Shown here: one piece after another, positions 8,103-9,053 of the stretch
Layout: every line of letters starts with the position of its first letter
Position numbering within the stretch: position 1 is the first letter of the stretch
NCBI GenBank assembly: GCA_963696975.1
Contig: CAVOMI010000007.1
Span: forward strand, 5,362-69,361
Direction of reading: 5' to 3'
DNA: 64,000 nucleotides
Source: an uncultured Actinomycetes bacterium
GTDB taxonomy: Bacteria > Actinomycetota > Thermoleophilia > Gaiellales > Gaiellaceae
Position numbers and translations under genes: made by a program
The notes under the pieces: generated by a model
Databases searched by the model: none
What the model was told of the DNA's origin: nothing
The model's input: the letters and a program-made list of their open reading frames with translations, nothing else

Positions 8103-8119
8103 CGTCACCGGACCGTCAC
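8103..8119 (-). promoter_or_regulatory. Two GTGACG direct repeats (minus strand) 11 nt apart, immediately upstream of the 70-aa ORF / DUF4157 unit
   Basis: Plus strand shows CGTCAC at 8103..8108 and 8114..8119. This is the same hexamer, phasing and gene-directed orientation as the arrays at 30525..30564 and 9014..9053. It overlaps the SARP stop codon. Confidence 0.4.
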
Positions 8120-8877
8120 CCAGGGCCGGCGCGCTCAGGGGCGAGAAGCTCGAGCATCTGCAGCGACGGGGTCAGGCCGAGGTGTTCCTCGAGGAGCCTT
8201 CGATACAGGCGGTATTGGCGAACGGCCTCGGCCTGGTTCCCCTCGGCCAGGTGCACCTTAACGAGGGCACGGTGCGCGCTCTCGCGCAGCGGCTCGCCCG
8301 CGACCGCGGCGAGCCCAGCGTCGAGAGCACGCGCGTACTCGCCCTGAGCGGTCAGCCGCTCGCAGACGCTCTCGAGCACGCGCAGCCGCAGCTGGTGGAA
8401 ACGCTCGCGCTCGATCACAAGCCAGTCGTCGTACCAGTCGGGCAGCAGGTCGAGGCGGAAGACCGAGTCGTCGAGGGCGTTGACCTCGGGCTGGTCGGTC
8501 TCGAGCAGCCGCTTTCCCTCGAGCAGCCGCTCGCGCAGGTCGACCCGGACCGTGGGCCCTAGCCTGAGCGTGGAATCCGCCGCCTCGACGACAGGGAGGC
8601 CGAGATGGTTCAGCCGCCACAGCGCCGTGCGAAGGTTGGCTCCGGCGGATTGCTCGCTCGTCTCGGGCCAGATGGCTCCCGCCACGTAGCTCCGCAGCAG
8701 CAACCGGTCATGGACGGTCACGAACGCGACAAGCCGCTGCACGCTCGGCGGCAACGCAACCGTCTCCTTGCCGTCGAGGAGCGCGAACGAGTTGAGGAGC
8801 TGGAGCCTGAGCGGTGCCCCGGACGGGCGCGCTCGGCGGTGCTGTTGCGCAACCCTGGTCGCTGCCGGACCGCTCAC
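8116..8877 (-). CDS. SARP-family transcriptional regulator (OmpR-type winged helix + BTAD)
   Basis: LRLQLLNSFALLDGKETVALPPSVQRLVAFVTVHDRLLLRSYVAGAIWPETSEQSAGANLRTALWRL is the winged-helix part. LPDWYDDWLVIERERFHQLRL...ALVKVHLAEGNQAEAVRQYRLYRRLLEEHLGLTPS is the BTAD part. The ORF runs to 9327, but its upstream part is Arg-rich junk. GTG at 8877 is the nearest start before the domain; the start is uncertain. Confidence 0.8.
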   Translation of the reverse strand: MSGPAATRVAQQHRRARPSGAPLRLQLLNSFALLDGKETVALPPSVQRLVAFVTVHDRLLLRSYVAGAIWPETSEQSAGANLRTALWRLNHLGLPVVEAADSTLRLGPTVRVDLRERLLEGKRLLETDQPEVNALDDSVFRLDLLPDWYDDWLVIERERFHQLRLRVLESVCERLTAQGEYARALDAGLAAVAGEPLRESAHRALVKVHLAEGNQAEAVRQYRLYRRLLEEHLGLTPSLQMLELLAPERAGPG

Positions 8878-9013
8878 CCCGCCGGCTCCGGCACCTGCGC
8901 GCAAGTCACCCTCTCGCCGCAGCAGTGGAGCATTCCCTGCATCGACTCCCCCTGCCTCGAACGACCCGACCGTAGCGCACCTTTCCGAGGAGGTCAACGG
9001 AAGCCACCGGATC

Positions 9014-9053
9014 GTGACGCTGCGGTGACGCCCGTTACTACGGCGCCGTGACG
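9014..9053 (+). promoter_or_regulatory. Three GTGACG direct repeats (spacing 11 and 23 nt) plus a -10-like TAAGTT upstream of the plus-strand DUF4157 gene
   Basis: GTGACG occurs at 9014..9019, 9025..9030 and 9048..9053. TAAGTT is at 9074..9079 and an ATG at 9087, about 7 nt after it, which would fit a leaderless transcript. Confidence 0.45.

Follow-up and report, generated by a model that had tools for sequence, protein, structure and literature searches.

In a stretch of 64,000 nucleotides from an uncultured bacterium of the Gaiellaceae (GenBank assembly GCA_963696975.1, contig CAVOMI010000007.1, forward-strand positions 5,362 to 69,361), hereafter the window, phased repeats of the hexamer GTGACG occur at three sites and probably form the operator of a regulator of the Streptomyces antibiotic regulatory protein (SARP) family encoded at 8877..8116. 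Through these three sites the SARP would control an extracellular contractile injection system (eCIS) together with its cargo genes, a reading to which we assign a probability of about 0.75. The window has a GC content of 69.5% and holds an eCIS locus with sheath, tube and two DUF4157/eCIS_core genes recognized by Pfam. Site A, on the plus strand, consists of three GTGACG copies (9014-9019, 9025-9030 and 9048-9053; overall 9014..9053) with spacings of 11 and 23 nt and an orientation that points away from the SARP gene. Site C has two copies on the minus strand, 8119..8114 and 8108..8103, spaced by 11 nt. Site B, also on the minus strand and upstream of the sheath gene, has GTGACG at 30564, 30552 and 30541 followed by GCGACG at 30530 (overall 30564..30525), with spacings of 12, 11 and 11 nt. 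A sequence-only reading of the window had listed these repeats, and GTGACG is indeed present at each position that it gave. Its remark that the minus-strand copies overlap the end of the SARP gene is likewise borne out, the stop codon TGA at 8118..8116 lying within the first repeat of site C.

Phased GTGACG repeats in the window and in related loci

The hexamer is not enriched in the window as such (82 copies versus 72 +/- 8 in shuffled sequences), and what distinguishes it is its phasing. Same-strand GTGACG pairs exactly 11 nt apart number three where 0.04 are expected, none of 1000 dinucleotide-preserving shuffles reached three such pairs (the maximum was one), and GTGACG is the top hexamer of the window for 11-nt phasing. 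With one mismatch allowed, phasing at 11 nt is found at sites A, B and C only; the remaining matches in the window are isolated pairs at 10, 12, 22 or 23 nt and are taken as chance. The unremarkable overall count would suit the view that the phasing arose by chance or from base composition in a genome of 70% GC, but that view is already refuted and keeps practically no probability, given the outcome of the shuffles and a 74-fold enrichment of the phased pairs over 80 independent loci.

Those 80 loci (1.39 Mb) were fetched via homologues of the SARP with 43-61% identity and belong to metagenome-assembled genomes of Gaiellaceae (Gaiellales), Solirubrobacterales, Thermoleophilia, Acidimicrobiales (Acidimicrobiia), Egibacteraceae and a few Chloroflexia; close relatives of the window (L081 onward) were obtained through DUF4157 and SARP protein homologues. 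In an unbiased scan of every hexamer that recurs on one strand at a distance of 11 nt, GTGACG came first by far, with 94 pairs versus 1.27 expected, distributed over 53 of the 80 loci. Pairs with one mismatch are found in most of the remaining loci too, at equivalent places. Spacing in the orthologous arrays is overwhelmingly 11 nt, with some cases of 22-23 nt, and the repeat is a strict hexamer whose flanks show only a weak C at -2 and G/C at -1. Anchoring 76 arrays on their last repeat gives A at +11 in 83% and T at +15 in 58%, a profile that points to an actinobacterial -10 element (nAnnnT) at a fixed distance of 9 nt after the last repeat. Published SARP promoters have the 3' repeat separated from the -10 element by 8 bp, with repeats 11 or 22 bp apart (PMC10936776). 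The spacing is reproduced in the window (11/23 at site A, 11 at site C, 12/11/11 at site B), and the distance from the 3' repeat to the -10 element is kept at site C, in about 80% of the orthologue arrays and, within 1 nt, at site B, but not at site A.

The genes that follow the arrays tie the repeats to the eCIS. A repeat pair lies no more than 300 nt upstream of 17 of 18 sheath genes, and the eighteenth has a pair spaced by 22 nt. Of 79 orthologous loci, 42 have a pair near the SARP stop codon (-70..+120 nt), ahead of a conserved ORF of about 67 aa, and the TGA frequently falls within a repeat; four loci have an array in front of the SARP gene itself. Further genes behind arrays encode Pvc16_N, CIS_tube-like, Peptidase_C1, Exo_endo_phos, DUF6345 and DUF1360 proteins as well as a Cys-rich protein of 434 aa. 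The start codon follows the last repeat by 20-25 nt in about one third of the orthologue arrays. As a separate observation, the SARP gene of the window and of many of L001-L080 takes its stop codon from an operator hexamer of its own (G-TGA-CG), which starts at an offset of -3 or -14 from the end of the stop codon.

The association also holds in the reverse direction. The triple repeat pattern was searched for in metagenome contigs, and among the matches listed (L096-L215) non-tandem arrays with a -10 element carry SARP-clade, small-open reading frame (ORF), sheath or tube genes in 9 of 19 stretches, versus 4 of 101 for the other pattern matches (p = 4.5e-6). The sequence-only reading had proposed that the repeats connect the regulator with both the sheath operon and the flanking cargo, and the survey and the reverse search uphold it, presenting the repeats as a conserved, promoter-embedded operator of this SARP clade.

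The SARP, its control region and sites C and B

The regulator (8116..8877, minus strand) has 253 aa from its start at GTG 8877 and comprises an OmpR-type DNA-binding domain followed by a BTAD domain, the latter matched by Pfam (PF03704) with an E-value of 2.2e-18. A profile built from 37 homologues matches the SARP domain of AfsR (8HVR; E 6e-8) over AfsR residues 38-279, which is nearly full length. In the AlphaFold2 model (predicted local distance difference test, pLDDT, 90), residues 23-106 form a beta-sheet, three helices and a hairpin, as in a winged helix, and helices across residues 113-245 make up an all-helical part. A Foldseek comparison of this model with AfsR (8K60, 8HVR) and EmbR (2FEZ) gave template modelling (TM) scores of 0.72-0.76 over about 240 residues. 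The homologues are 220-290 aa long and fall in the 'small' class, which is without C-terminal NOD or TPR domains. On this evidence the BTAD-domain regulator is a genuine small SARP. Residues 75-91, its predicted recognition helix, are one of the best conserved segments of the protein, with A78, L82, R83 and W87 invariant, and a near-invariant helix fits an invariant DNA motif.

From the sequence features, their statistics and conservation, the geometry of the promoters and the fold of the SARP, we infer SARP binding, activation and transcription start sites as follows. Judging by the AfsR structure, SARP protomers would bind the repeats head-to-tail on one face of the DNA, with the two promoter-proximal protomers occupying the usual place of the -35 element. 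They would bring RNA polymerase to promoters with a -10 element alone, located 9 nt after the last hexamer. At site C the SARP would drive a leaderless message for a protein of 67 aa and the translationally coupled DUF4157 gene 2, and at site B it would act on the promoter of the sheath/tube structural operon. The SARP gene would be transcribed from its own sigma-70-like promoter, TTGACC-17-TACGGT, via a short, translationally coupled upstream ORF. The array of site A is inverted and lies directly upstream of this promoter, which makes autoregulation of the SARP likely, in a direction that cannot be read from the sequence.

The candidate SARP promoter is on the minus strand and consists of a -35 element, TTGACC (8997..8992), a 17-nt spacer and a -10 element, TACGGT (8974..8969). 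It is conserved, in that the block TTGAC[CG]-17-TA[CG][CG]GT is kept in all nine distinct relatives. Between the promoter and the SARP gene lies the upstream ORF, 22 codons (MQGMLHCCGERVTCAQVPEPAG) at 8874..8942 on the minus strand, preceded by a strong Shine-Dalgarno sequence, GGGGGAG at 8952..8946, and ending in a stop codon that shares bases with the SARP start codon (GTGA). The relatives keep this ORF at 22-23 codons, the length changes preserve the frame, and the motif LH[CS]CG is invariant, which suggests translational coupling or control of SARP synthesis. The constant block of the nine relatives thus reads CGTCAC-N5-CGTCAC, 16-17 nt, TTGAC[CG], 17 nt, TA[CG][CG]GT, GGGGGAG, the upstream ORF and the overlap of its stop codon with the SARP start. 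An Rfam scan of 7700-9400 returned no RNA family.

Site C has the canonical promoter geometry. Its candidate -10 element, CAGCAT (8093..8088, minus strand), follows the second repeat at a distance of 9 nt and precedes GTG 8079 by 8 nt, and the arrangement is kept in all nine distinct relatives, where the -10 element reads CAGCAT, CAGATT, CAACAT or CAAGAT. An internal promoter in front of 8088, raised in the sequence-only reading, is strongly supported; it would lie at the 3' end of the SARP gene, ahead of the 70-aa ORF of that reading and DUF4157 gene 2. TTG 8088 itself, the start in the ORF list, is not a likely start because it overlaps the -10 element, and the small ORF more likely begins at GTG 8079, in which case its message is probably leaderless. 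From GTG 8079 the small ORF (7876..8079, minus strand) encodes 67 aa, is conserved and is translationally coupled to the next gene. A hidden Markov model (HMM) of it finds matches in 50 of 92 loci, almost always beside the SARP gene and 25-100 nt after the SARP stop codon; in 5 loci it sits just upstream of the SARP gene. Its structural model (pLDDT 89) is a beta-beta-beta-helix, three strands and a long helix, and searches of Pfam, NCBIfam and PDB folds gave no significant match. Only 7 homologues were found in databases because gene callers miss the gene; they usually skip it or give it a wrong start codon. DUF4157/eCIS_core gene 2 (6437..7879, minus strand; PF13699, E 3e-14) starts at TTG 7879 or ATG 7873, so that its start overlaps or abuts the stop codon of the small ORF. 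The relatives keep site C and the small ORF, and the gene that follows the small ORF varies.

Site B precedes the first gene of the structural operon, the sheath gene (28503..30452, minus strand; Pfam Phage_sheath_1 and Phage_sheath_1C), which starts at TTG 30452 behind a GGAGG Shine-Dalgarno sequence and is followed by the tube gene (28007..28501, minus strand; Pfam Phage_T4_gp19). The candidate -10 element of the operon is GACACT (30514..30509, minus strand), 10 nt after the last repeat of site B, which leaves a leader of about 50 nt before TTG 30452. TAGTTC, the -10 element implied by the sequence-only reading, was dropped; GACACT fits the A and T positions of the orthologues with a shift of 1 nt.

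Weighing the proposed circuit: site A and DUF4157 gene 1

Several observations weigh against the circuit as a whole or against the part that site A would play in it. Pfam Trans_reg_C was not detected in the N-terminal domain of the SARP at E <= 0.01. A generic promoter and terminator scan of 7800-9300 called none, using the E. coli consensus with at least 4 of 6 matches to TATAAT, which is uninformative for actinobacterial TANNNT elements. The sequence of the window was matched in four soil-metagenome DNA runs, with no RNA run among the matches. GTGACG-N5-GTGACG-N5-GTGACG occurs also in unrelated low-GC contigs and as true tandem 11-mers, so the pattern alone is not diagnostic and a -10 element and non-identical spacers are needed too. 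Lastly, linkage to the arrays is as tight for the conserved small ORF as for the SARP gene, and the case for binding by the SARP is built from linkage, geometry and the reverse association. It is conceivable that the repeats are bound by another protein, either the 67-aa protein or an unlinked regulator, with the SARP merely located beside them. The equal linkage of the small ORF would agree with this, but the small protein has no recognisable DNA-binding fold, the phasing of 11/22 nt, the distance of 8-9 nt to the -10 element and the replacement of the -35 element are the published signature of a SARP, and the nearly invariant SARP recognition helix matches the invariant motif. Binding by another protein is hence improbable.

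Site A departs from the canonical geometry. DUF4157/eCIS_core gene 1 (9087..10589, plus strand; PF13699, E 1.4e-23) encodes 500 aa from ATG 9087, and its candidate -10 element, TAAGTT (9074..9079, plus strand), ends 7 nt before this start. The distance from the third repeat to TAAGTT is 20 nt (9 + 11); the canonical proximal position, 9059-9064, reads TCATCG, and +11 and +15 after the third repeat are G and C. This layout is unique among about 79 arrays. TACGGC (9039..9044), 8 nt after the second repeat, was rejected as a -10 element for site A: it lacks the final T and is not conserved (TGCAGC in L081). The sequence-only reading placed the start of the gene probably downstream of GTG 9048, and this stands: TAAGTT-N7-ATG is kept in the relatives L088 and L089, the N-terminal length of orthologues agrees with ATG 9087, and in L088 a different cargo gene has the same first approximately 22 codons in frame. 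The message of DUF4157 gene 1 is probably leaderless. The public gene call P0001 (452 aa) begins at ATG 9231 and removes the conserved PIEIGRIDDPAEHEADRVA motif, and leaderless starts without a Shine-Dalgarno sequence seem to be systematically mis-called in these loci.

Comparison with the close relatives indicates what is constant around site A. The array is kept in L081/L082, L088, L089, L090/L091, L092, L093, L094 and L095 regardless of the neighbouring gene, and the pair 9014/9025, which in the window lies 16 nt upstream of the SARP -35 element on the other strand, is 16-17 nt from it across the nine distinct relatives. In L081/L082, L090/L091 and L092 the three repeats are kept and there is no divergent gene. 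Since the array persists beside the SARP promoter in such loci, site A is primarily part of the SARP control region. In L088 and L089, whose SARPs are 93% identical to that of the window, a DUF4157 gene is divergent from the SARP gene, and both keep the three repeats as well as TAAGTT, the ATG 7 nt behind it and approximately 22 initial codons; TAAGTT and the ATG are conserved in these two alone, that is, where a DUF4157 gene occupies that side. Beyond these codons the L088 protein is a different one, joined in frame and with an identity of 37% that is confined to the domain, which indicates an exchange of cargo behind a constant promoter and leader. The window and L081 cease to be homologous about 15 nt after the third repeat, ahead of TAAGTT; the two are 97% identical over the structural genes versus 69% over the DUF4157 gene, and relative to the conserved flanks the L081 homologue of DUF4157 gene 1 is inverted. 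In L093-L095 that side holds a gene for a protein of 275 aa followed by sheath and tube, and the divergent arrays before this operon have no recognisable -10 element at the canonical distance. These three relatives (68-71% identity) have divergent arrays of up to five repeats, with spacings of 11, 22, 22 and 24 nt.

The sequence-only reading had the repeats bracket the SARP gene and point at both DUF4157 genes. For site C, which is canonical, this is sustained; site A is non-canonical and belongs primarily to the SARP control region. That reading had also turned on whether orthologous DUF4157 genes have repeats upstream, and here the outcome is mixed. In L081-L087 the true orthologues of DUF4157 gene 1 sit inside operons, and no repeats precede them. 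Over the 80 loci, too, DUF4157 genes are mostly operon-internal; the one in L017 has a canonical array to itself and starts at a leaderless GTG.

Two accounts of site A have to be compared. It is possible that site A serves only as an autoregulatory or architectural operator of the SARP promoter, that transcription of DUF4157 gene 1 from TAAGTT does not depend on the SARP or is weak and constitutive, and that the two came to be adjacent through rearrangement of cargo cassettes. The constant distance from the array to the SARP -35 element, maintained also in the three relatives without a divergent gene, speaks for this account, and the break in homology between the third repeat and TAAGTT, the non-canonical spacing of TAAGTT and the degenerate proximal site are in keeping with it. 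Against it, TAAGTT has no -35 element, and the repeat at 9048 is exactly in the register of an upstream protomer, 9 + 11 nt from the -10 element; divergent arrays next to the SARP gene drive a gene without exception in other clades, and SARPs are not known to act from about -55 to -90 in inverted orientation. A purely autoregulatory or architectural site A thus has a substantial probability, though one below even. Activation of DUF4157 gene 1 by the SARP is what we lean towards. In the window and two close relatives the repeat at 9048 would take the position of the upstream protomer (about -39..-34) at the -35-less TAAGTT promoter, and activation by site A would probably be weak or cooperative.

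The mobility of the cargo raises a further possibility, namely that the repeats are not operators but recombination or cassette-exchange sites, or debris of tandem repeats beside variable cargo. Cargo on both sides of the module formed by the SARP gene and the small ORF does vary among close relatives with breakpoints near the arrays, and elsewhere the triple pattern exists as true tandem 11-mers. On the other hand, spacers within the arrays differ from one another, so the arrays are not tandem duplications; a -10 element is at a fixed distance in about 80% of them, they precede conserved structural genes such as sheath, and no recombinase is linked to them. An origin of this kind is very improbable, and the SARP operator remains the preferred explanation of the repeats.

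Possible cargo slots, known systems and significance

Cargo genes next to the SARP module show great plasticity (9054..10589 on the plus strand of the window, 6001-7545 in L081, 3195-4787 in L088), and the eCIS loci of the relatives carry DUF6519 and Pvc16_N genes. The counterpart in the window of the 873-aa DUF6519 gene of L088-L090 looks frameshifted (10690..13312, minus strand): the last part of an 820-aa ORF at 10850..13312 is an Arg-rich tail read out of frame, and the C-terminal part continues in a different frame at 10690..11373. The frameshift could be a sequencing or assembly error or could mark a pseudogene. In other loci (L004, L007, L008, L012, L023, L025, L032, L033, L037, L040, L055, L056 and L064), the genes right behind canonical arrays encode Peptidase_C1, Exo_endo_phos, a VanY-like peptidase, DUF6345, DUF1360 and several large proteins without a Pfam match; by virtue of their position they are candidate eCIS cargo or accessory genes.

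The closest known system is AfsR with the afs box of the afsS promoter in Streptomyces coelicolor (8HVR, 8K60; PMC10936776), which shares the SARP fold of the window protein (TM 0.72-0.76). In both, direct repeats one helical turn apart lie over the -35 element and spacer, and the 3' repeat is 8-9 nt from a suboptimal -10 element. The window SARP differs from AfsR in its size of 253 aa, in having no NOD or TPR domain, in an identity of about 24%, and in the repeat core, GTGACG, with 2-5 repeats per array. Its predicted targets also differ, being a contractile injection system and its cargo rather than a regulator of secondary metabolism, and many of them would be leaderless.

The small, pathway-specific SARPs of antibiotic gene clusters, of the ActII-ORF4, DnrI and RedD type, offer a second comparison. 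Like these proteins, the window SARP is a small, cluster-situated activator whose arrays occur in more than one promoter of the cluster to which it belongs, divergent intergenic regions among them, and whose repeats are 11 or 22 nt apart. The heptamer repeat of the ActII-ORF4/DnrI/RedD type is TCGAGXX. Motif, regulon (a phage-tail-like particle) and hosts, which are not Streptomyces, set the present system apart, as do the stop codon inside the operator, the conserved upstream ORF and the small-ORF partner.

Control of eCIS expression is, to our knowledge, almost unknown outside Photorhabdus, Serratia and Streptomyces. SlpR/SCO4263 of Streptomyces is a protein of the LuxR/GerE type. It is a cluster-specific activator of the contractile injection system, is needed for the particle and is subject to bldA control through a UUA codon (PMC8505568). 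Both SlpR/SCO4263 and the window SARP are cluster-situated, but SlpR is not a SARP, and its fold and binding site are unrelated. BTAD was described as an eCIS 'shell' domain and putative regulator by Geller et al. in 2021 (PMC8213781), as repeated in a 2026 review (PMC12961389). Those BTAD genes show the same association of BTAD/SARP, eCIS and DUF4157, and the papers report gene adjacency only. The searchable literature yielded no paper describing the operator, promoter architecture or regulon of eCIS-linked SARPs. The link between BTAD and eCIS is already published, and what is new here is the motif, the regulon and the hosts outside Streptomyces, on a textbook SARP promoter architecture.

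A more far-reaching interpretation is that the GTGACG operator delineates the whole of a SARP regulon that serves eCIS loci of uncultured Actinomycetota and marks variable cargo slots on either side of a fixed module (upstream ORF, SARP gene, operator and small ORF), with toxins swapped behind the same promoter and, on one side, a leader of approximately 22 codons. The inverted array and the 67-aa partner would then represent an undescribed form of SARP autoregulation or co-regulation. This interpretation is tentative and rather unlikely to hold in full. If its cargo slots are real, the operator could be used to find new eCIS cargo, including Peptidase_C1, EEP nuclease, VanY-like, DUF6345 and Pfam-less families.

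eCIS particles are under development as programmable protein-delivery devices. A conserved operator would offer, for a large group of uncultured soil bacteria, a model of regulation that can be tested, together with a sequence handle that predicts which neighbouring genes, including unannotated cargo, belong to the system. The geometry of the operator would also correct the starts of leaderless genes that gene callers truncate. SARPs are usually seen as regulators of antibiotic clusters; the arrangement described here suggests that they may also control phage-tail-like machines well beyond Streptomyces.

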